Shown here: positions 1,367 through 40,482 of the stretch, piece after piece
Layout: each line of letters starts with the position of its first letter
Position numbering within the stretch: the stretch's first letter is position 1
Assembly: GCA_951406725.2 (NCBI GenBank)
Contig: OX597818.1
Coordinates: 4,154,001-4,218,000 of the forward strand
Reading direction: 5' to 3'
DNA: 64,000 nucleotides
Source of the DNA: Octopus vulgaris
Lineage: Eukaryota
Notes under the pieces: model-generated
What the model was told of the DNA's origin: nothing
Seen by the model: only the letters and a program-made list of their open reading frames with translations
Database searches by the model: none
Program-made: the position numbers and the translations under genes

Positions 1367-1894
1367 TGTGAGAGTTAGCACTTCCTTCTCTAAGCTTAGA
1401 TTCGAAATCGAATCCAAGAATCATCGGTCGTCAAATACCAATGCATGTATAGGCGCGAAATTTAAAGATCCTTTGTTCTGTCAAAAAGTGATTGATCATC
1501 TCCCTTTGACCTGCGACCTCAGCCATGTCAGGCGAAGTTCAACTGGACAAACGCTGACCTACTTAGTATGTCTATCTGTTGCAGTATGTCTATCTTTCTA
1601 GCTGTTTGAGATATTATAAATACAAGGGAAAAACAGTGAAAGACACACAATCGGAGCTGACACATCAGCAGACACCCCGCGTTTTGGAGACGACAGAGAA
1701 ATGCCTACAGGCTACTGTTCTGAATGATTCACGCACACACACAAACATATTCATCTTTAATATGTGTTCTATACAAGCAATGCGTAGCATTTGCTTACAG
1801 TTTTATGTAGTGTACTTATAACCCATGTAAATAAATCCCTTTTTAATCATGAAACAGTTTATGTATTTATTAATACACACACACATCCACTACA
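1367..1894 (+). repeat. 5' LTR (528 bp)
   Basis: Starts TGTGAG and ends CTACA. Matches 9499-10034 apart from about 2 substitutions and an 8-bp indel in a CA tract. Contains TATA-like and AATAAA motifs. Confidence 0.97.
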
Positions 1895-1896
1895 TT

Positions 1897-1907
1897 TGGT
1901 GACCCCG
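1897..1907 (+). promoter_or_regulatory. Primer-binding site complementary to the tRNA-Trp 3' end
   Basis: TGGTGACCCCG lies 2 nt after the 5' LTR and is the complement of the CGGGGUCACCA tRNA-Trp 3' end. Confidence 0.85.
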
Positions 1908-2013
1908 TCAAACGAATTGCGCCTTCCCTGGAACCAGCTTCATCAACCGCGTCGAAGAATTACAGCTTGCACATCACCCGGCAACGAAACACCTGAGAAT
2001 TCCGACGAACACA

Positions 2014-2507
2014 ATGGCCCTCCCGGAACAGAATCCAGCGGCCAACATCATACCTCCGATCGACATGGCATTCCAAGCAGCGATTTCTTTGAAAATTCCA
2101 CCATTCTGGATCCACGACCCTGCATTATGGTTTTACCATATAGAGGCACAGTTTTCCTCTCACAGATTACTGAGCGATGCGTCTCGACTTTCGCATGTTA
2201 TCGGTTCTCTGTCGCCAGAAATAACAAACGTTGTCCGTGATTTTATCATGGCACCACTCGGTTCTGTGTCGTACGACACTTTTAAAACCACGCTGATAAA
2301 CAGAACCTCCGAATCGCAACAGAAACGACTTCACCAGCTTCTGATATCGGAAGAATTGGGTGACAAAATGCCGTCCCAGCTTCTTCGTAGAATGAAGCAG
2401 CTTCTCGGAGATGAGAGCCTCCCAGAAAAAAATTTGAAGCAGCTTTTTCTCCAGCGTCTGCCCTCCAATACCCAGGTTGTTCTCGCTTCTACCAGAGAAA
2501 ATACATC
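2014..2507 (+). pseudogene. gag: Gypsy gag, N-terminal part (interrupted)
   Basis: LKIPPFW..DPALWF..IEAQF, LGDKMPSQLLRRM and LFLQRLP motifs. The reading frame is broken at ...STRENTS by the insertion. Confidence 0.9.
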
Positions 2508-2623
2508 TGTAGCAATATCGTTCTCTCATTGCTATCTTCACTGTTTGAGAAGAGTATTAAGAATAATTTCATTCGAGATTATAGACATCTTCGGCTAGTT
2601 CAACATTGTTGTAAACACTAATT

Positions 2624-2775
2624 CGATTGGCTGACACGTGGTCTCTACTACGTTCACACCGCTGGTTATCACGTGACGCGATTTGCCTTCGCTTATTTTC
2701 GCGCCATAGTTCCAAGCAACCAATCACAGCTTTCCATTTCTGAAGTTCACTGGGAGCCGGGTGAAGCTTATAAAA
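2624..2775 (+). promoter_or_regulatory. LTR U3-type Pol II promoter
   Basis: ATTGG and CCAATCA boxes, two CACGTG E-boxes, and TATAAAA at 2769-2775, about 145 nt before the ATG at 2919. Confidence 0.55.
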
Positions 2776-2918
2776 CAAGGTTTCTCAGAAAAATATCCGT
2801 CTGAGGCTTCCAGTCTTTGAGTTAGTTAGTAGGAGTTATTCTGGTGTGTTTATTTCAAGAGAAGAGGTTGTGAGTTCGAGTTCGTTGGAGGACGTGGAAT
2901 AATTTTTTTTTCTTGAAA

Positions 2919-4256
2919 ATGCAAGAGCAGACTTACGCGCGAGCGGCAAGCAGAGGCCTGGTTGCCAGTGAACTGGAAATGGAGGAGGTGGTGGTCGAAC
3001 AGAAGACTTTACAGAAGTATTTCGACAGTTTAAAGAGGGAGGGTGACTGCGTGATAGTCACACCGTCCGAGGAGGAGGAAAGCAGTGCAGAGAAGCGTAC
3101 TATAACGTACAGGACGTGGTGCGTGGAGTCGAAAAAAATTGAAGTAGCGGAAATAGAAGAAGTAGAAAAGTGTCTGAAGGAAATTGAGGGTGAACCCACA
3201 TTTTTCAAAAGAGGAAGGAAATATGCCACGGTGGTGGTGTATTTTAAAACAGAAGATGAGGCAAAAAAGAATGCAACAAGAATTTTGAAGTCGGATAAGT
3301 GGACTTTGCTACCAAGTTACTGCGGAAGGAGAGCAGTGAGGATGAGAATCAATAGAATCTCACCCGAATTTAATATGGATAGGTTGCTGGCGGCGGTGCT
3401 GTTTAACTGCAAGGATGATGTGGAGGTACTGAAGGTGGAGAAGTCAGCAGAGGTTAAGTGGTGGGGATATATGGTGCAGGTTCTGGCACACATAACCGTG
3501 CGAGATCTGTACAACATCCCGGAGGAGTTGGTCTACCCTGACGAAACACGGCTCCGAGTTGTGGTAGAGGGAAGACCCCCAATCTGCTATAATTGTAAAT
3601 CGAGGGGCCACATGAAGGATGTGTGCCCGCGGGAAAAAACAAAAGCACCAGAAGTTGTGATAGAGGAGGGTAAAGATGCGTGTGTGGAGGAAGCGAAAGC
3701 GGAGGGAACACGAATGGAGGAGCAGTTAAATGAGGAAGAACGAGCAAGTGCAGAAGAGGAAAAAACAGAAGATAGGAAGAGATCAAGGGTGGAATCACCA
3801 CCGAAAGATCTAAAAAAGAAAAAAATCAAAAGCAAGATAGCAGAAGAGAGAGAAGAGAAAACATACAAAGGACAGGAAGTAAAAGAGAAGGAGAGAGAGC
3901 GGCCAAGGACAGAGTTTGAACAAGAATGGGAGACAAGAGTGAACGAACAGTTGGAATCGTGTAAATATGGAAGAAGGCCTACAGGGAAAAACTTGAAGGC
4001 AGTTGTGATGTATATCAAGAATACAGAAGTGGAAAAGAGACTTGTAGGTAAGAAAGGGTTGATCAGGGTGAAGGTGAACCCAAAAGTGTATGGTGAAGAT
4101 GTAAAAGGCGTCATTATAGACAAAGAGACATACACAAAATTAAAAAAGATATTTAATGCTATGCATATAATGCATTATGTACGGTATGATAAATTACCAG
4201 ATGTAATAGACCAAATGGACCTATTGGATTATATGACGGACGAGCGTCTAATGTAA
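2919..4256 (+). CDS. Intact 445-aa LINE ORF1/Gag-like protein with a CCHC zinc knuckle and a charged C-terminal region
   Basis: Uninterrupted ORF. VVVEGRPPICYNCKSRGHMKDVC (CX2CX4HX4C) follows an RRM-like region, as in L1/Tx1 ORF1. TYA motif near the N-terminus. No ORF2 follows. Confidence 0.75.
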   Translation: MQEQTYARAASRGLVASELEMEEVVVEQKTLQKYFDSLKREGDCVIVTPSEEEESSAEKRTITYRTWCVESKKIEVAEIEEVEKCLKEIEGEPTFFKRGRKYATVVVYFKTEDEAKKNATRILKSDKWTLLPSYCGRRAVRMRINRISPEFNMDRLLAAVLFNCKDDVEVLKVEKSAEVKWWGYMVQVLAHITVRDLYNIPEELVYPDETRLRVVVEGRPPICYNCKSRGHMKDVCPREKTKAPEVVIEEGKDACVEEAKAEGTRMEEQLNEEERASAEEEKTEDRKRSRVESPPKDLKKKKIKSKIAEEREEKTYKGQEVKEKERERPRTEFEQEWETRVNEQLESCKYGRRPTGKNLKAVVMYIKNTEVEKRLVGKKGLIRVKVNPKVYGEDVKGVIIDKETYTKLKKIFNAMHIMHYVRYDKLPDVIDQMDLLDYMTDERLM

Positions 4257-5379
4257 AAGAATTAGAATTGTTAATTGTAAAATTGTATGATGTAAAGTTG
4301 TATTTTGAATGTTAACATGTAAAATTGTAAAATTATTGTACTGGAATATATGTAACTGTAAAATTGTATTGGAATATATGAAATGTACAATTGTATTTTA
4401 AACGGAACTGCGAGTTGGGGGTTCGTAAGCCGTTCCATCTCATTACATATAATTCATCTTTACTTCATATTTTATTTTTACTTTATGTACCCCATGTCCC
4501 GTCTTGTAATGTCCCCCTCTTCGTGGCCCCTTTGTGGGTAATAAAGAAACATCTTAGGTTTCAAGTCCTTCTCAGGGCGAACCTCTGACCACACAGAGCA
4601 TACTCGACCAAGTTCCAGTTCGAAAGGCAGGCGACCACCATTAATACAAGATGTTACAGATACCTCTCATACTGTTAGTGTGAAAATATCACCACGAAAA
4701 GAACGGTTACAGGATATCTATAACTAGAGAAAAATAACCAAGCAGAATATATAATGAAGACGCAGCGAAAACCAAGCGACAGACACAACTCATCGCCAAA
4801 CATCGAAGATTTAATTTGTACACAAGACAACTACAGATTTAGCTATAGCGGTTAGGTGAAAATCTCACCACGGAAAAAACGGCTACAGTTAACACATCTG
4901 GAAGTGTATTCATATCAAGAGAAAGATAAACACAACGAGTGATTCAATTAATCTCAACTACGAGACGCAACCTCTTGATATGGAACTCTTACACGGTACC
5001 TCATAAACGGTAAATCAATTATCTGTTCTTGGGTTCTAGTTCTTCTAAGAAGCCATCTGTTACTACCTGTTGCCAGGCTGATACCAACAACATGAACTGT
5101 GAACTAAATTCCATCGTCATTTCACTGGTCAGTACCTTTTACGCCTCACGAACACACAGACACAAAAACATGCTAACACTTACAAACTTCCAACATCAAG
5201 CATGATTGTAAAATATGTAAAATAAATAATGTATATATCTCAAAAAGAAATCTTGTTGTCATTCCACTTATGTGTTTTGCCGCTGCATGTAAAACTGGTC
5301 AGTAAAGACTCATTAAGAATGGGATCGCGTTCGACTGTGTCTCTTATACGATACGACCGAATGTGCTCCTATTTTTATA

Positions 5380-5770
5380 CATCCATTGAAGAACTGGCGG
5401 AGCTAGCTGACAAAATAGCCGAAGTACCACACAAATATCCAACGGTATCGACGGTGACGCCAGCCGCTCCCAGTACCAATCCTTTCTGTGCACAAACCAG
5501 TTCTTCCGAGATTTCGGACTTGCGTGCATTAATGACACAGCAAGCTGCTCAAATACAGATCCTCACAACCCGAATACAGGCCCTAAAGCTTAGTCCCCAG
5601 CATCGAAGCACCAGCCGATCGCGACGAGATGGCAGACGGTCCCGAAGCCCCAGTGTTACCCGCAACTCACATGACACGTATTGATACCACCGAACATTCG
5701 GAACACGGGCACAAAAATGTACGGTACCGTGCTCGTTTTCCTCACCCAGTTCGGGAAACGGCACAGCCAG
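5380..5770 (+). pseudogene. gag: Gypsy gag, C-terminal part
   Basis: IEELAELADKI, an SR-rich segment, and a degenerate (C)WYHxxFGxxAxKCxxPC motif with a TGG>TGA stop at 5682-5684. Confidence 0.85.
5753..5759 (+). promoter_or_regulatory. -1 ribosomal frameshift slippery site G GGA AAC (gag to pol)
   Basis: The gag frame reads GGA AAC and the pol frame (-1) reads GGG AAA CGG, immediately before the protease. Confidence 0.8.
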
Positions 5771-8735
5771 GAATTGGACGCGACGGAAGTTCCTGGCTCG
5801 CACCCACACAGTCGCCTGTTTTTTGTTTGCGATCGGGTAACAGGCACGCGTTTCCTAGTTGACACCGGTGCGGAAGTCAGCATCATCCCTGTCTCCAACA
5901 CTTCTGGAAAAAGAAAAGAGACATCAGCCTGTCTTCAGGCAGTCAACCATTCACCCATCCCAACCTACGGTGAACAATCCCTAACATTGAACTTAGGACT
6001 ACGCCGCACATTTCAGTGGGTATTCGTCGTCGCTAAACTGCCGACCCCTATCTTAGGAGCCGATTTCCTGCATCATTTCGGTCTCCTGGTAGACATAAAG
6101 AACAGACGACTTGTCAACACCACCACCAAGCTTACTGTGCGCGGTATAGCCGCTCGTATGGCCACAGTCAGCCCAACTGTATTGCTTACAACAACGACTC
6201 GTCACAGTTCCATCCTGAAGGAATATCCGGACGTCGCTCGACTAGTATCCCACAACCAGCCGATCAAACACGACGTTACCCACCACATCAAAACCAGCGG
6301 TCCACCTGTTGCTGCAAGGCCCAGAAAGTTACCACCTGATCGTCTCCAGGCCGTCAAGCGGGAATTCCAGCACATGCTCGACCTCGGAATCATCCGCCCT
6401 TCCAGCAGCAACTGGTCCTCGCCGATACACTGCGTCCCAAAAAAATCATCGACCGATTGGCGGGTTTGCGGCGATTATCGATCGCTGAATAAAAGCACTA
6501 TCAGTGATGCCTATCCGGTGCCTTTTCTTCAAGACTTTTCGAGCTCGCTGCATGGAGCTTGCATCTTTTCCAAAATCGACCTGGTGCGAGCATACAACCA
6601 AATCCCAGTGGAACCTGCGGACATCTCAAAGACAGCAGTTACTACACCTTTCGGAATGTTTGAATTCCTGCGTATGCCTTTCGGTTTACGCAACGCGGCA
6701 CAGACATTCCAAAGGTTTATCGACATGGTGACTAGAGGTTTGCCTTTCGTCTATGCCTACATAGACGACATACTCGTGGCCAGTAACTCGGACGAAGAGC
6801 ATAATCAACACCTTCACCTGCTATTCGAACGTCTCCGTCAATTTGGAATTGTTATCAACCCTACTAAATGTTTGTTCGGAGTTGCTTCCCTTCATTTTCT
6901 CGGCCATATAGTCGATAAAAATGGAATTCGTCCCCTTCCCGAGAAAGTCAAGGCCATCGTGGATTTTCCACCACCCACATCTCTCCGCAAATTAAGGGAA
7001 TATCTCGGTCTAGCGAATTTCTATCGACGGTTCGTGCCCCACCTCGCTGAGATAGCGCAACCGCTCACGGATTTGCTACGTCAGCGAACCTGCAAAAATG
7101 CAGATATAGCTCTGACCGAAGATCAACTCGCTTCTTTCGCTGCCCTGAAAAAAGCGTTATCTAGCGCTACCATCTTGGTTTATCCAAAACCAGACGCCCC
7201 ACGATGTTTACTCGTTGATGCATCCGATTCCGGAATCGGAGGTGTACTACAGCAGCTTGTTGACGGTATATGGCAACCGTTGTCTTTCTTTTCTAAGCGA
7301 TTAAAACCCGCGGAAACCAAATACAGCACATTCAGTCGGGAATTATTGGCGGCATACCTGGCCGTTAAGCATTTCCGTCACATGCTAGAAGGTACCAATT
7401 TTGCCATATACACCGACCACAAGCTATTAGTATATGCATTTAACACCAAGCCGGATCGCCACTCGCCGAGAGAAATCCGCCACCTCGACTTCATATCGCA
7501 GTACACGACGGATATACGCCACATCAAATGGACGACCAACTTAGCAGCCAATGCACTTTCACGCGCGTAGATCAATGCTATCCACACCACGTCTACAATT
7601 GATCTGGCACGTATAGCAGCTGACCAGGAGAATGACGAAGAACTTCTAAAGTTCCGGAATTCGTCATCTCTGAAATTTCAGCATGTTCCGCTACCATCAT
7701 CCACATCCCATATTTGGTGTGATATCTCCATTGGTTACCAACGCCCTTATATACCACAGAAATATCGCCGAGAAGTTTTCTCCGCTCTGCATTCTCTGTC
7801 ACATCCTGGTATTCGCTCCACTCAAAAGCTGATATCGACCCGTTTTGTGTGGACCAGTATCAACAAGGATATCAGAGAATGGACCAAGTGTTGTGTTGCG
7901 TGCCAAAAAGCGAAAATCCACCGGCACATAAAATCACCAATCGGTTCATTTTCGCAACCCGACGCACGATTTCAGCACGTTCACATTGATATCATCGGAC
8001 CCCTGCCACCTTCGCAGAACTATACACATTTGCTTACCTGCGTAGATCGTTTTTCGCGATGGCCCGAAGCCTGGCCCTTATCTAATACATCACCAGAAAC
8101 GGTCGCCAAAACGCTGATATCACAATGGGTTTCGCGTTTTGGCACACCCGCAACAATCACCACCGACAGAGGACGTTAGTTCGATTCCCACCTTTTCACC
8201 GAGCTGACTCGTCTCCTCGGGTGTAAACACATCCGCACTACGGCTTACCACCCTGCAGCAAATGGCATGGTCGAGCGCTTTCACCGCCAACTCAAGGCAT
8301 CTATCAAAGCAGCTCCAGACAGTTCTCACTGGTTGGAACATCTCCCTCTCATCCTCCTTGGAATTCGATCCACGGTTAAGGAAGAACTGGGATATACTCC
8401 GGCCGAACTCGTTTATGGCACAGCACTCACCTTACCTGGGCAGATGATCGAACCTGTTTCACAAGACTTTCCTGACCCACAACAATATGTGCACCGATTA
8501 CGGACATCCACGTCGCAGTTATCACCTTCAGGCCCCAGACAACAGAACGTCGTTTCACGAGTCCCAAAAGATATCAACACTTGGACTCATGTTTTCATGA
8601 GGAATGATGGGATACCATCTCAACTTCGACCACCATATTCCGGGCCCTACATGGTAATCAAAAGAGAACCCAAGTATTTCGTCCTCGATATTGGAGGTAA
8701 ATGAAATACAGTCTCGATTGATCGTTTAAAAAAAA
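5753..8735 (+). pseudogene. pol: Gypsy pol (protease, RT, RNase H, integrase) with 3 in-frame stops
   Basis: LVDTGA; YIDD; DAS...RELLA...TDHK; HHCC zinc motif; D(IIGP)...D(RG)...E(RFH); GPY. Stops at 7568, 8177 and 8702 with the frame preserved. Confidence 0.95.
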
Positions 8736-9485
8736 GCTTTCATCGAGGATGACTTACATTCAGTTCCCTCCTTTCCTCGAACAGACTCAACAACTCCAGC
8801 AAACACCACAGATTCTACACAACCCTGACACACCAAATCGGGAAGAACAGTTCGATGGCCAGCAAGGTTTGTGCAAGTTTTTCGGGTAAGTTCCGAACTC
8901 TTAACTTATCCATCTTCCTAAATGAAATGCATACATCAACACATAACCCACATACAAACCCAAAGAAATCAAAGAACATTTGTGTACATAAAGAAAAAAA
9001 ATGAAAACAAAAACGTTGTTCCACATCAACGGAAAACTGTCTGAATGAACATTTACGGAACATTTCACAATCGAACTTTGCCAATGAACATTTCTTTCAT
9101 TTTTGCATGTACATATGTTTTGTTTTCTCTTTAAAATGTTTTGCTTTCTTGTAAATATATTTTTTGCTACCTGTATGTTCACACTCATTTACAAGTCATA
9201 TTCTCATGTATGCTACCACTCGATCTTTTTCGCCACTGAAAGACACCTTGCCTCTATTAGACCTCTAGTGGGTCGAGTAATCAATAGACGCACATCTCTT
9301 TCAACGCGCCAACATATTTCTGCCTGGGCACATATACGTATTGCCCACCATATAGCACATACAAACAGTAAACCTTTGATTCATATTTTTATTGTTCATT
9401 TGTCTGTTACAATGTGTAAATTTTTTCTGCATACACACAAAAAATAACATTTCCAATATCGTTCGATCTCTGTGGCTTTCTCACT

Positions 9486-9495
9486 AGAAGGGGGG
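9486..9495 (+). promoter_or_regulatory. Polypurine tract
   Basis: AGAAGGGGGG lies 3 nt upstream of the 3' LTR. Confidence 0.85.
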
Positions 9496-9498
9496 TAG

Positions 9499-10034
9499 TG
9501 TAAGAGTTAGCACTTCCTTCTCTAAGCTTAGATTCGAAATCGAATCCAAGAATCATCGGTCGTCAAATACCAATGCATGTATAGGCGCGAAATTTAAAGA
9601 TCCTTTGTTCTGTCAAAAATTGATTGATCATCTCCCTTTGACCTGCGACCTCAGCCATGTCAGGCGAAGTTCAACTGGACAAACGCTGACCTACTTAGTA
9701 TGTCTATCTGTTGCAGTATGTCTATCTTTCTAGCTGTTTGAGATATTATAAATACAAGGGAAAAACAGTGAAAGACACACAATCGGAGCTGACACATCAG
9801 CAGACACCCCGCGTTTTGGAGACGACAGAGAAATGCCTACAGGCTACTGTTCTGAATGATTCACGCACACACACCCACACATACAAACATATTCATCTTT
9901 AATATGTGTTCTATACAAGCAATGCGTAGCATTTGCTTACAGTTTTATGTAGTGTACTTATAACCCATGTAAATAAATCCCTTTTTAATCATGAAACAGT
10001 TTATGTATTTATTAATACACACACATCCACTACA
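9499..10034 (+). repeat. 3' LTR (536 bp)
   Basis: Direct repeat of 1367-1894 with TG...CA ends, followed by TSD CGGG. Confidence 0.97.
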
Positions 10035-10100
10035 CGGGTATTGTTGCAGATGTGCAAGATGAAAGAAGAACTACTCGAAGTTGTAAAGAAATCTTTTACC

Positions 10101-10338
10101 TATTTCTTTACTACCCACAAGGGGCTAAACACAGAAGGGACAAATAAGGACAGACAAACGGATCAAGTTGATTATATCGACCCCAGTGCGTAACTGGTAC
10201 TTTATTTACCGAATCCGAAAGGATGAAAGGCAAAGTCGACCTCGGCGGAATTTGAACCCAGAACGTAACGGCAGACGAAATACGGCTACCCATTTCGCCC
10301 GGCGTGCCAACGTTTCTGCCAGCTCGCCGCTTCCTCAT
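10101..10338 (-). mobile_element. tRNA-derived SINE (family A), full length
   Basis: A box (TGGCAGAAACGTTGG) and B box (GGTTCAAATTCC). Central GCCTTTCATCC...AAGTACCAG block resembles the Meta-SINE domain as I recall it. 15-bp TSD AAGAAAT(C/A)TTTTACC at 10086-10100 and 10339-10353. Confidence 0.85.
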
Positions 10339-10368
10339 AAGAAATATTTTACCACTACACATACATGT

Positions 10369-12966
10369 CCTTGATGAGATCTCCAGTAGTTGATTTCAGA
10401 GGGGCTGACTTGGTTGCGGATGGACCGAGGGCCTTCTTCAGACCGGCATACATCCCACGGGTGTCGCCACTGTCAGCAGCTGACTGGATACTCTGACAGA
10501 TTTCCTGCCAATACCTACTTGCACAGCGTCTGGCAGTCAGTTGGGTTTTATTTCTTGCCATTCTGATTTCTTCGAGTGACTTTGTAGAAGAATCACTCTT
10601 GTATTGCATCAGAGCTGCACGCTTTGCTTCGATAACTGGTTCCAGCTCTGAGAGCCCAGCACTGAACCAATCTGGGTTTTGCCTTTCTCTCATGCCGAAA
10701 GTATCTATTGATGTGGTATACAAAGCTTCCCTGATATAATTCCACCTAGCAGAGGAGGTTGGGCAGCTACTGAGGGCAACCTTGATAGAAGCAGCAAAAC
10801 ATTTTCGCAGTGTAGGATCTGAGGTTTTGGCAGTGTTAATGCGTGGTCGGCCCATTTTCTTGGAGTGATGGACTTTTTTAGGCAGAATCCTCACCCTACT
10901 TCTAATTAGTGAGTGATCTGTGTCACAATCCACGCTGTGGTAACTACGGGTCAGTTGAACGGAATTCAGAAAGGATCTTCGTGTAATGATGAGATCCAGA
11001 TGATGCCAGTAGTGAGATCTTGGATGTCTCCAAGATGCCTTGTGGGGTGGCTTGTTGGCAAAGAATGTGTTGGTGATGCACAGGTTATGGTATGTGCAAA
11101 ATTCAAGTTGTCTCTGACCATTGTCATTCATGTTGCCAATACCAAAGTGTCCAACACAAATGGGCCATAGATCATGGTCAGATCCCACGTGAGCGTTAAA
11201 ATTTTCTAGAAGGTAGATGTTTTCATTGGTTGGTATATTTTTAATGACAAAGTTGAGATCTTTGTAGAACTGGTCCTTGGTCTCCTCTGAGCTGTAGTGA
11301 GTGGGAGCATAGATGCTCAGTAGATGTACTGAACCAGAAGAAGTCGAGAGGCGCAGTGAGTGGATACGCTCAGTGCCTCCTGATGGTGGTTCTATTGAGG
11401 AATGTAATGAGTTTCTCACTAGACCTTCGTTCGCGTTATCCTGTCCAGGCTACAACTGCTTGCTTCTCAAATTTATCCGGAATCGCAGTGTGGCTTTAGA
11501 AGAAGCAGATCAACTATTGACATGATATTCTCCATATGCCAACTTCAGGAGAAGTCCAGAGAGCAGAAATTACCATTATATATGGCCTTCATTGATCTGA
11601 CAAAGGCCTTTGACTTGGTAAGTAGAAAAGGCCTCTTCATCCTGCTCCAAAAAATCGGATGATCACCAAAGCTGCTGAGGATCATCAAATCTTTCCATGA
11701 GGATATGCAAGGCACCATACAGCACAATGGTTCAACATCAGCCGCCTTCCAAATAAAAAACGGGATAAAGCAAGGTTGTGTCCTTACTCCTACATTATTT
11801 GGCATCTTCTTCTCGCTGCTGCTCTCACATGCCTTTGAGACATCAGATGATGGAGTGTTTCTGCACAGTAGATGTGACGGGAAACTGTTCAATCTCTCGC
11901 GCCTGCGTGCCAAGACCAAAATCAGAAGCGTCCTGATCAAGGAGATGCTATTTGCTGATGATGGCCGCTCTGGTATCATACACAAAAGAAGCCCTCCAAA
12001 GGCTCATCAACTGTTTTGAGCAAGCATGTAACGACTTTGGCTTAGTTATCAGCCTCAAGAAGACCAACATCATGGGTCAGGCAACATCGGACATCCCAAA
12101 CATACATATTGGAAACCACAGATTACAGGAGGTGGAGAAGTTTACCTACCGTCACCTACAACCTATCCCTTGATGCTGAGCTCAATATACGCATTGGCAA
12201 GGCAGCTGCTGTGATGGCCCAACTCTCCAAATCGGCATGGGACAACAATAACCAAGATCACCAAGATCTAACCAAGATCACAAAAATGAAGATCTACCAG
12301 GCATGTGTACTTAGCACTCTACTGTATGGAAGTGAGACTTGAACGCCATACACGCGTCAAGAGCGTCGCCTCAACATCTTTCACCTGCGCTGCCTCCGGA
12401 AAATCCTTCGCATCAAATGGCAGAATCATGTTCCCACCAAAGATGTCCTCAAGCAAGCAGAAATCCCAAGCATGTTTGCACTCCTCACACAAAGACGTAT
12501 GAGATTGCTTGGACATGTTAGCCGTATGGAAGATGGCAGAATCCCCAAGGACATACTCTACAGAGAGCTTGCTCGGGGCACTAGGTCTGTGGGAAGACCG
12601 TTCTTACGATACAAGGATGTTTGCAAAAGGGACATGAAGGCCTGCAACATCAATATTAGCAACTAGGAAGCAGTTGCCAGCAACTGTGGAGATTGGCGAC
12701 GTACCGTAAAAGAGGGAACACAAAGGAGTGACAGAGAGAGAGAGAGGAGAAATGGAAAGACAAGAAAAGATGTCAACAAGAAACTATGACATTACAACCA
12801 GCCAGGAAAAGTCTTCGCTACATTTGCGGCACCTACCAGAGGGAGTGTTTGTTCAGGATAGGACTACACAGCCACAGCAGGAAATGTATTAGGACATGAA
12901 ATGTAAAAGCCGGACTAGATTATTTTATGCGCAACTCCATTGTCTCCCGAGACAAAAAGGATGCCA
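10369..12966. mobile_element. RTE-clade LINE, 5'-truncated with a 5' inversion
   Basis: APE domain on the minus strand (10369-11419: SIYAPT, HLDLI, TDH) and RT on the plus strand (11421-12780: QCGFR, AFIDLTKAFD, KQGC, LFADD). RTE-type 3' end GTCTCCCGAGAC..GGATGCC. 12-bp TSD ACACATACATGT (10357-10368 and 12967-12978). Confidence 0.92.
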
Positions 12967-39436: not shown

Positions 39437-40482
39437 GTGAATCAGTTTTTGCTAGACACATGTTTCCCTAGCTTGTCTCTTTGGCAGAGCTACAGCCCTG
39501 GGTCAAGCAAAGACCAAGGAAGTGCACTTAGAAAGTTGAATGTCTTCAAGCACTATCAACCCTCTCAGCCTGCCAAGTATTGTGATAGATAGAAAATCCA
39601 CTAATGACAGGTAAAATCAATGACATTCTTGGGGAAACCCTGGGCATTTAAGATAATCAACTAGCCACTCTCTTCTAGAGAACTTTTGGCCCAGAGTCAA
39701 TAGGTAACATCCAGAAATTCCTGGTCTGGCAGTGCTATCAGGGAGCATTGCTAGTTTGAGATAAACTCTACAGGCATAGATGTACCATCAGCTGAACATG
39801 TCCAAGATGTGCACAGGGTGACGAAATCAATCTGCATATGCTTTTCCAAGGCCCAAGCATTCCTGTCCTGTGGATTTATGTCAAACACCTGCTGTCACAT
39901 GGAGTGGATCTGACTATCTACTGAATCCATCATGAAGATTGCTCCACTGCCTTCGTTTAACCAGGAAGGGTAGACAGTTTTATATGCATGGTTGATGTGA
40001 TTGAAGAGGCTGAAGACAAACACGTCCTCCTTTGGCCCAACACCCATCAACTTTGTCAAGTTACACTTGAAGAAGAAAACAAAAGTGGAGAGGGGAGTCT
40101 TGCCTTTCAGCCATTTTGTTGAAAGGCGGATGATGGTGGCAAGCATGGTCCAAATGAATGTGCCTGCCCTGAGCTTACACCTGTAATTTGAAGAGAAAGA
40201 AACAGAGAAGGCACTTGCTACAGAAGTCAGGGTACCTATCTTTTTATAGGCTTTTTCCGTGACCACACCTCAAACATTGTCTCCCTATTGAGAAATTCTC
40301 ATTAAAATTTCACCATAACCTGTTTTTTTTTAATTGTTAAACCTTTTCACACATGAAACCTACACACCAACACGCATATGCAGAAGTTCATACACACTCA
40401 ATGTTTTGTCCACTACTGTCCTCAATATTTCTGTAATGTAATCCCTTTGTGGTTAATAAAGAAATCAATATTATTATTACAA

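Follow-up and report, generated by a model that had tools for sequence, protein, structure and literature searches.

How did an unbroken ORF with a zinc knuckle and no reverse transcriptase (RT) come to lie inside an LTR-like shell that itself splits the gag gene of a young Gypsy element? We addressed this question in the window, a 64,000-nucleotide stretch of Octopus vulgaris contig OX597818.1, and by searches of the genome (2.8 Gb in 227 contigs). The locus resolved into three nested elements: a young Ty3/Gypsy element (1367-10034), a 1.13-kb solo LTR inside its gag gene, and a 1.75-kb ORF1-only retroelement inside that LTR (Table 1). The Gypsy LTR pair differed by 2 substitutions over 526 aligned bases. 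Gag is interrupted at 2507/5380 by the insert 2508-5379, between the copies of a 4-bp repeat. A target duplication of 7 bp was rejected as a chance extension into the LTR end, since in 16 of 20 two-ended shell copies these termini are flanked by a clean duplication of 4 bp. The insert carries CCAAT-type boxes at 2626 and 2720, E-boxes at 2635 and 2670, a TATAAAA motif at 2769 and a polyadenylation-type AATAAA signal, and the ORF unit enters the LTR 31 nt downstream of the TATA box. An earlier note on this DNA had described the insert and its target duplication, the promoter motifs, the intact 445-aa zinc-knuckle ORF without RT in a host whose gag and pol carry stops, and an imperfect 16-bp direct repeat (13/16 matches between 2800-2815 and 4552-4567). 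All of this held, with a duplication of 4 bp. Most likely, the Gypsy element would have come first, then the solo LTR, and then the unit into the LTR start site.

Table 1. Features of the nested locus, in window positions
Feature	Position	Strand	Evidence or remark
5' LTR of host Ty3/Gypsy	1367..1894	+	2 substitutions vs 3' LTR 9499-10034
Host gag, segment before insert	1993..2507	+	DUF7041 E 1e-24; Ty3_capsid E 0.008
Solo-LTR 4-bp target duplication, left copy	2504..2507	+	flank comparison, shell copies
Solo-LTR shell, U3-like promoter half (CCAAT, E-boxes, TATA 2769)	2508..2799	+	genome copies, 90-94% identity
5' leader/target duplication of unit, 31 nt past TATA; likely near LTR transcription start	2800..2815	+	start placed by distance only
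5' UTR of ORF1-only unit	2816..2918	+	common to copies in unrelated targets
Intact ORF1, 445 aa: two predicted RRM-like folds, CCHC knuckle (223-236), disordered linker, small C-terminal domain	2919..4256	+	
3' UTR and conserved tail, AATAAA 4540	4257..4549	+	tail common with two-ORF partner LINE
Solo-LTR shell, R-U5-like right half, opening with intact target copy	4552..5379	+	genome copies
Solo-LTR 4-bp target duplication, right copy	5380..5383	+	flank comparison, shell copies
Remaining host gag and pol; gag stop at 5682, pol stops at 7568, 8177, 8702	5380..8704	+	
3' LTR of host Gypsy	9499..10034	+	pair with 5' LTR

Shell and ORF unit were searched separately, and both were multi-copy, with empty shells and LTR-external units both common. 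The left 293 bp of the shell gave 495 candidates genome-wide, 40 of which were scored, and the right 810 bp gave 405. Among the best 20 left-half loci, 18 were empty, with the two halves joined in a 1.1-kb element, one had no right half and one was filled. The shell starts with TG and ends with TA at fixed termini, so that the canonical TG...CA ends were not found. A primer-binding site (PBS) followed the LTR in four shell copies and in none of the reversed control. Fixed termini, 4-bp duplications and PBS-bearing relatives with paired LTRs thus identify the shell, as judged from its structure, as a solo LTR, in line with the LTR character proposed before; a DNA transposon was rejected, since terminal inverted repeats are missing and PBS-bearing relatives exist. 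The paired shell copies that we saw were small and noncoding, and a narrow search behind the four PBS-bearing matches found no gag-pol partner with this LTR. Two copies (L145, G000:C20:8790300-8791900, and L148, 8815900-8817400) have a TRIM-like form, consisting of a short, 118-bp deleted LTR, the PBS, about 180 bp and a full LTR, and sit inside a 25.6-kb segmental duplication.

The ORF1-only unit has positions 2816-4549 in common among its copies, which lie mostly outside the LTR. Its ORF gave 96 scored genome matches, many of them without stops. When the window ORF was compared with 28 intact relatives, dN/dS was 0.14-0.29 for 24 of them, higher (0.37-0.52) for three, including two hyper-edited copies, and saturated for one; over the ORF core (residues 24-238), it was mostly 0.05-0.18. 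Synonymous distances within the family reached about 2. By these ratios, the ORF is evidently under purifying selection. The protein is predicted to contain two RRM-like folds and a CCHC knuckle: the structure model (mean pLDDT 67.6, pTM 0.43, core 80-88) had tandem-RRM proteins as its best matches (E 2e-4, with low TM-scores), and the zf-CCHC match had an E value of 0.0018, below Pfam's curated cut-off. A homolog search with the ORF, which is weakly informative, gave no match among 7,996 scored candidates. Contigs assembled from four runs, guessed to be RNA, cover the ORF and the shell and show the joints of the empty LTR and of uninterrupted gag; they were not used as evidence, because they are unable to show start, strand or expression.

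We then asked from which kind of element the unit derives. Over about 300 aa, the window ORF shared 31-33% of its residues with ORF1 of two-ORF elements (E about 1e-47); its identity to the ORFs of three other ORF1-only families was 25-34%. In the tree, the ORF1-only families and the ORF1s of the two-ORF elements formed deep, supported branches, and an alignment of 23 sequences had 17 invariant columns. The two-ORF partner has a CCHC knuckle in its ORF1 and an APE-type endonuclease, RT and the C-terminal zinc motif zf-RVT in its ORF2. For the latter, 147 matches were scored, and a frame of 1,132 aa was open in many of them; its best named relative is from Argonauta (64% identity over 41% of the query), and the relatives carry the same Pfam set. 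We call this LINE Tx1-like, a designation taken from its layout only. One 3' tail is common to the units, the sister ORF1-only families and the two-ORF partners, and in the window and in full-length copies about 300 nt separate the ORF stop from the tail, with no ORF2 between. The unit is thus a HAL1-like, ORF1-only nonautonomous LINE derivative, as the earlier note had suspected, and it fits the definition of an ORF1-present nonautonomous LINE given in the available part of PMC5786205. An origin by a single deletion within a full LINE was rejected: the unit is multi-copy, synonymous divergence within the family reaches about 2 or more, and identity to the partner ORF1 is only about 30%. Nor is the composite a unique event, since 6 of the 32 unit loci described below lie in this LTR.

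Two-ORF partners stand in tandem, with a spacing of about 5.3 kb and many open 1,132-aa ORF2 frames, at G000:C27:32965821-32987755 and C30:10437074-10448384. The accessible text of an octopus repeat annotation reports recently active L1-Tx1 families and has no word on their targets (PMC13282606). Within the window, an abundant short repeat at 10100-10330 (minus strand), found also near 40443 and at many loci, has a tail nearly equal to that of the LINE family and is often nested in its own copies; it is probably a SINE mobilized by the same partner. Pieces of a different LINE, with an endonuclease part on the minus strand and an RT part on the plus strand, lie beside the Gypsy 3' LTR at 10355-12666.

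In a further step, the landing sites of the unit were surveyed with an exact-tail pattern, which had 49 genome matches and none in the control. These were grouped into 32 loci, all of which were examined, and TATA boxes were tallied by eye. Thirteen loci lay behind the TATA box of a Helitron, six in this LTR, five at one-off sites with a TATA-type box and one (L066) behind a weak one; the seven without a TATA box at that distance were four short copies in TG repeats, L064 (antisense in another repeat), L231 and L232. Independent insertion contexts are few, since 19 of the 32 loci belong to two repeat families. At the one-off sites (L063, L065, L039, L037 and L230), the TATA-type box starts 30-31 nt before the duplicated target. 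By a hand estimate from base composition, such a box is expected at about 0.02 per site in a 7-nt window; even at 0.1 per site, 5 of 13 sites with a box gave a hand-estimated p of about 0.006. The units at L063, L065 and L230 are 5' truncated and leaderless and have 18-19-bp duplications; at L230, the tail match is an internal one, and the duplication is that of the short element around it. The junction flank of L065 had no close copy in the genome. The surroundings of this locus (G000:C2:182998245 region) include an upstream TATA box and, about 45 nt downstream, a possible splice donor; the site may represent a host gene's first exon.

The main landing site is a nonautonomous Helitron of roughly 1 kb with an internal TATA box (L031-L036, L038, L043, L049, L050 and L071-L100), which starts with TC and ends with a hairpin and CTAG. 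Insertions lie about 30 nt behind its TATA box, and 29 of its best 30 loci, mostly empty, had the TATA match. By eye, the Helitron sequence behind the TATA box resembles a decayed ORF1 fragment. A Helitron variant with a different sequence after the TATA box (empty in L093) was entered at the same distance in L114, L157 and L158. More distant relatives follow TATA-like boxes at 24-32 nt in two further repeats. At L044, L046-L048, L121-L128, L133, L138 and L140, older relatives that carry a second type of tail stand behind TATA-like boxes in two other repeats, whose downstream part looked hammerhead-like by eye and had no Rfam match. Some two-ORF copies (L103, L116, L117 and L118) have no TATA box or have it at another distance. 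Insertion upstream of Pol III-transcribed tRNA genes was not encountered: the insertions are downstream of TATA boxes, and none of eight target loci had an Rfam match.

Units were also found stacked. An array head was seen in 12 of the 13 Helitron loci and 5 of the 6 LTR loci, and nine arrays that we extended held up to about 15 head-to-tail units from up to four ORF1-only families behind one TATA box, with a two-ORF element at the far end in five of the nine. Head-to-tail arrays are formed by HeT-A too. Some array units (L049, L050, L038/L057, L043/L058 and L070/L234) have target duplications of 25-70 nt that include the TATA box; such long duplications give the downstream unit its own promoter copy.

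The 16-bp repeat around the window unit was informative about the RNA. Its 3' copy is identical to the sequence of empty shells, and its 5' copy has one mismatch to the leader of the unit at L037, an unrelated target in which the LTR-type leader sits after that target's own duplication. In all likelihood, the 5' copy was inherited as the leader of the RNA, and leaders that travel with the RNA would imply transcription from the target's promoter. From the greater divergence of this repeat compared with the host LTRs, it had been suggested that the ORF unit entered the shell before the shell moved. This does not stand: with a 5' copy that was probably inherited, the 13/16 match gives no age, and we rejected it as a means of dating the insertion.

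Passage through RNA probably left a second mark. The unit at L062 differed from that at L039 by 164 A-to-G changes, no G-to-A changes and 7 of other types; the head unit at L029 differed from the window unit by 160 A-to-G and 5 G-to-A changes. These two copies (L062:4422-5783 and L029:7228-8577, both minus strand) stand first behind the TATA box of the LTR, carry the A-to-G changes on the sense strand and keep an open frame. The excess is likely due to hyper-editing by ADAR before reverse transcription, and edited RNA thus likely entered the inherited genome.

Taken with the variable duplications and 5' truncations in the family, which are marks of target-primed insertion, these observations make it probable, in our judgment, that the unit is copied in trans by the Tx1-like LINE and inserts at Pol II start sites, some 30 nt downstream of a TATA box, borrowing that promoter. 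The start sites are placed here by their distance from the box. Presumably lacking a promoter of its own, the unit would be transcribed from a start in the target, whose first bases would become the leader, and its RNA would end at its own AATAAA signal. The ORF1 protein would package this RNA, and the partner's endonuclease-RT would prime on the common tail, while the promoter complex or its open DNA would determine the position of the first nick. Homology of the leader or tail would favor reuse of the same target family. New copies would enter at the start site ahead of older ones and so build head-to-tail arrays, with the promoter left mainly to the first unit.

Pure promoter targeting is insufficient on its own, because sub-lineages of the unit are faithful to one target family: target labels changed 8 times in the ORF tree, where at least 7 changes were required and shuffled labels gave a mean of 18.4. 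This fidelity favors the main rival, in which insertion has weak specificity, only copies that happen to lie behind a promoter are transcribed, and their target-derived leader or 3' read-through sequence guides progeny back to like targets, in the manner of R2 or R1 co-transcripts. The resemblance of leaders to their targets fits such homology-guided reinsertion, as do the short truncated copies in TG repeats, where the first bases of the target match the end of the tail; according to the available text of PMC4494074, target-specific integration can become stronger when element and target are transcribed together. Evidence against homology guidance comes from the dead-end, leaderless, truncated units of L063, L065 and L230, which lie at unrelated one-off sites and still 30-31 nt behind TATA-type boxes, and from the Helitron deletion variant, entered at the same distance despite its different downstream sequence. 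Several target switches within a short branch length of the ORF tree count against it as well. We consider this explanation unlikely by comparison with promoter targeting, and the two processes may both be operating.

The proposal that the LTR captured the unit once and has since spread it as cargo, perhaps in the role of a helper or restriction factor, is now largely refuted, and we regard it as very improbable. In its favor, 6 of the 32 loci are in this LTR, and filled shells are somewhat clustered (shuffles were as low in 8-18 of 500), with the filled shells L045 and L062 on a common branch of the U3 tree (100/99). However, filled shells do not form one group: they required three label changes in the trees of both LTR halves, and a single group appeared in 0% of 200 bootstrap trees. 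The right half of the window shell was 99% identical to an empty LTR copy, and the nearest ORF copies (96% nucleotide identity) lie in a Helitron. Most units are outside the LTR, truncations and variable duplications point to target-primed reverse transcription, and no element with the unit in both of its LTRs was seen among the loci fetched, including the four PBS-bearing matches. Nothing was found that pointed to a helper or restriction role towards Gypsy. Independent entries into the LTR family are the simpler reading, and the window unit would be one of several such entries; the LTR may occasionally have carried the unit as well.

A spacing of 30 nt is long for an APE-type endonuclease, the LTR, the Helitron and the one-off sites have no sequence relationship around the cut, and orientation is sense to the TATA box in all TATA-bearing cases; a sequence-specific endonuclease reading an A/T-rich TATA-like motif about 30 nt from its cut, without the transcription machinery, thus has hardly any standing, even if the junctions are often AAC/A or TCAG. 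Tx1-clade elements are often sequence specific through their endonuclease, in the accessible text of PMC4494074, which speaks for such an enzyme.

Three kinds of element close to this picture were known before: ORF1-only LINEs, transposon-targeting Tx1 elements and the Pol III-positioned TRE5-A. According to the available text of PMC5786205, HAL1, HeT-A and Ag-Sponge resemble the unit in having one ORF1-type protein, no ORF2 and a tail in common with an autonomous LINE. In contrast to them, the unit has a Tx1-like partner, coexists with other old families (at least four ORF1-only families in all) and is tied to TATA boxes, being neither random nor telomeric in placement. The TRE5-A.1/TRE5-A.2 system of Dictyostelium likewise includes an ORF1-only derivative mobilized in trans, and TRE5-A inserts with position and orientation specificity near transcription starts, forms tandems at one target and encodes an ORF1 protein that binds TBP in vitro (PMC5391098, in the part available). 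TRE5-A carries a promoter module of its own and enters upstream of Pol III tRNA genes, at a distance of about 47 bp (same source), whereas the unit lies downstream of the TATA box at the presumed start and is apparently without a promoter.

Xenopus Tx1L and the crocodilian Tx1-Mar, Tx1-8_Crp, Tx1-4_AMi and SINEU also prefer other transposons, including LTR elements; in the accessible parts of PMC4494074 and PMC6719617, transcription from the flank is proposed for SINEU, and the transposon-targeting Tx1 group is described as having acquired 5' heads from other RNAs. Their targets are given there per repeat family, without a stated positional rule, whereas the lineage of the unit enters unrelated targets at a common TATA distance. 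Tf1, the P element, Mutator and mPing share a preference for the 5' regions of genes; the available text of PMC6719617 presents them as LTR or DNA elements that have promoters of their own and insert over broad windows, without base precision or stacking. Our literature search, which drew mainly on papers outside subscription journals and Repbase, found no report of a LINE placed by TATA distance in unrelated promoters.

A wider claim, which we advance tentatively and judge a little short of an even bet, is that a promoterless LINE clade docks on Pol II start complexes and inserts at +1 of any germline-active TATA promoter, in LTRs, Helitrons and probably host genes, and that at least four long-lived ORF1-only satellites compete for the first place, possibly with an ORF1 protein that reads TBP. 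If this were true, the clade would be a natural, base-precise promoter trap and its copies a fossil map of germline start sites. If the targeting itself is real, it would suggest a start-site-specific integration tool and provide a testable model for site selection by the Pol II machinery. The LTRs and Helitrons that the elements entered would also have their transcripts cut short. Moreover, such targeting would explain why ORF1-only elements keep their ORF, with the ORF1 protein acting as a packaging or targeting factor.
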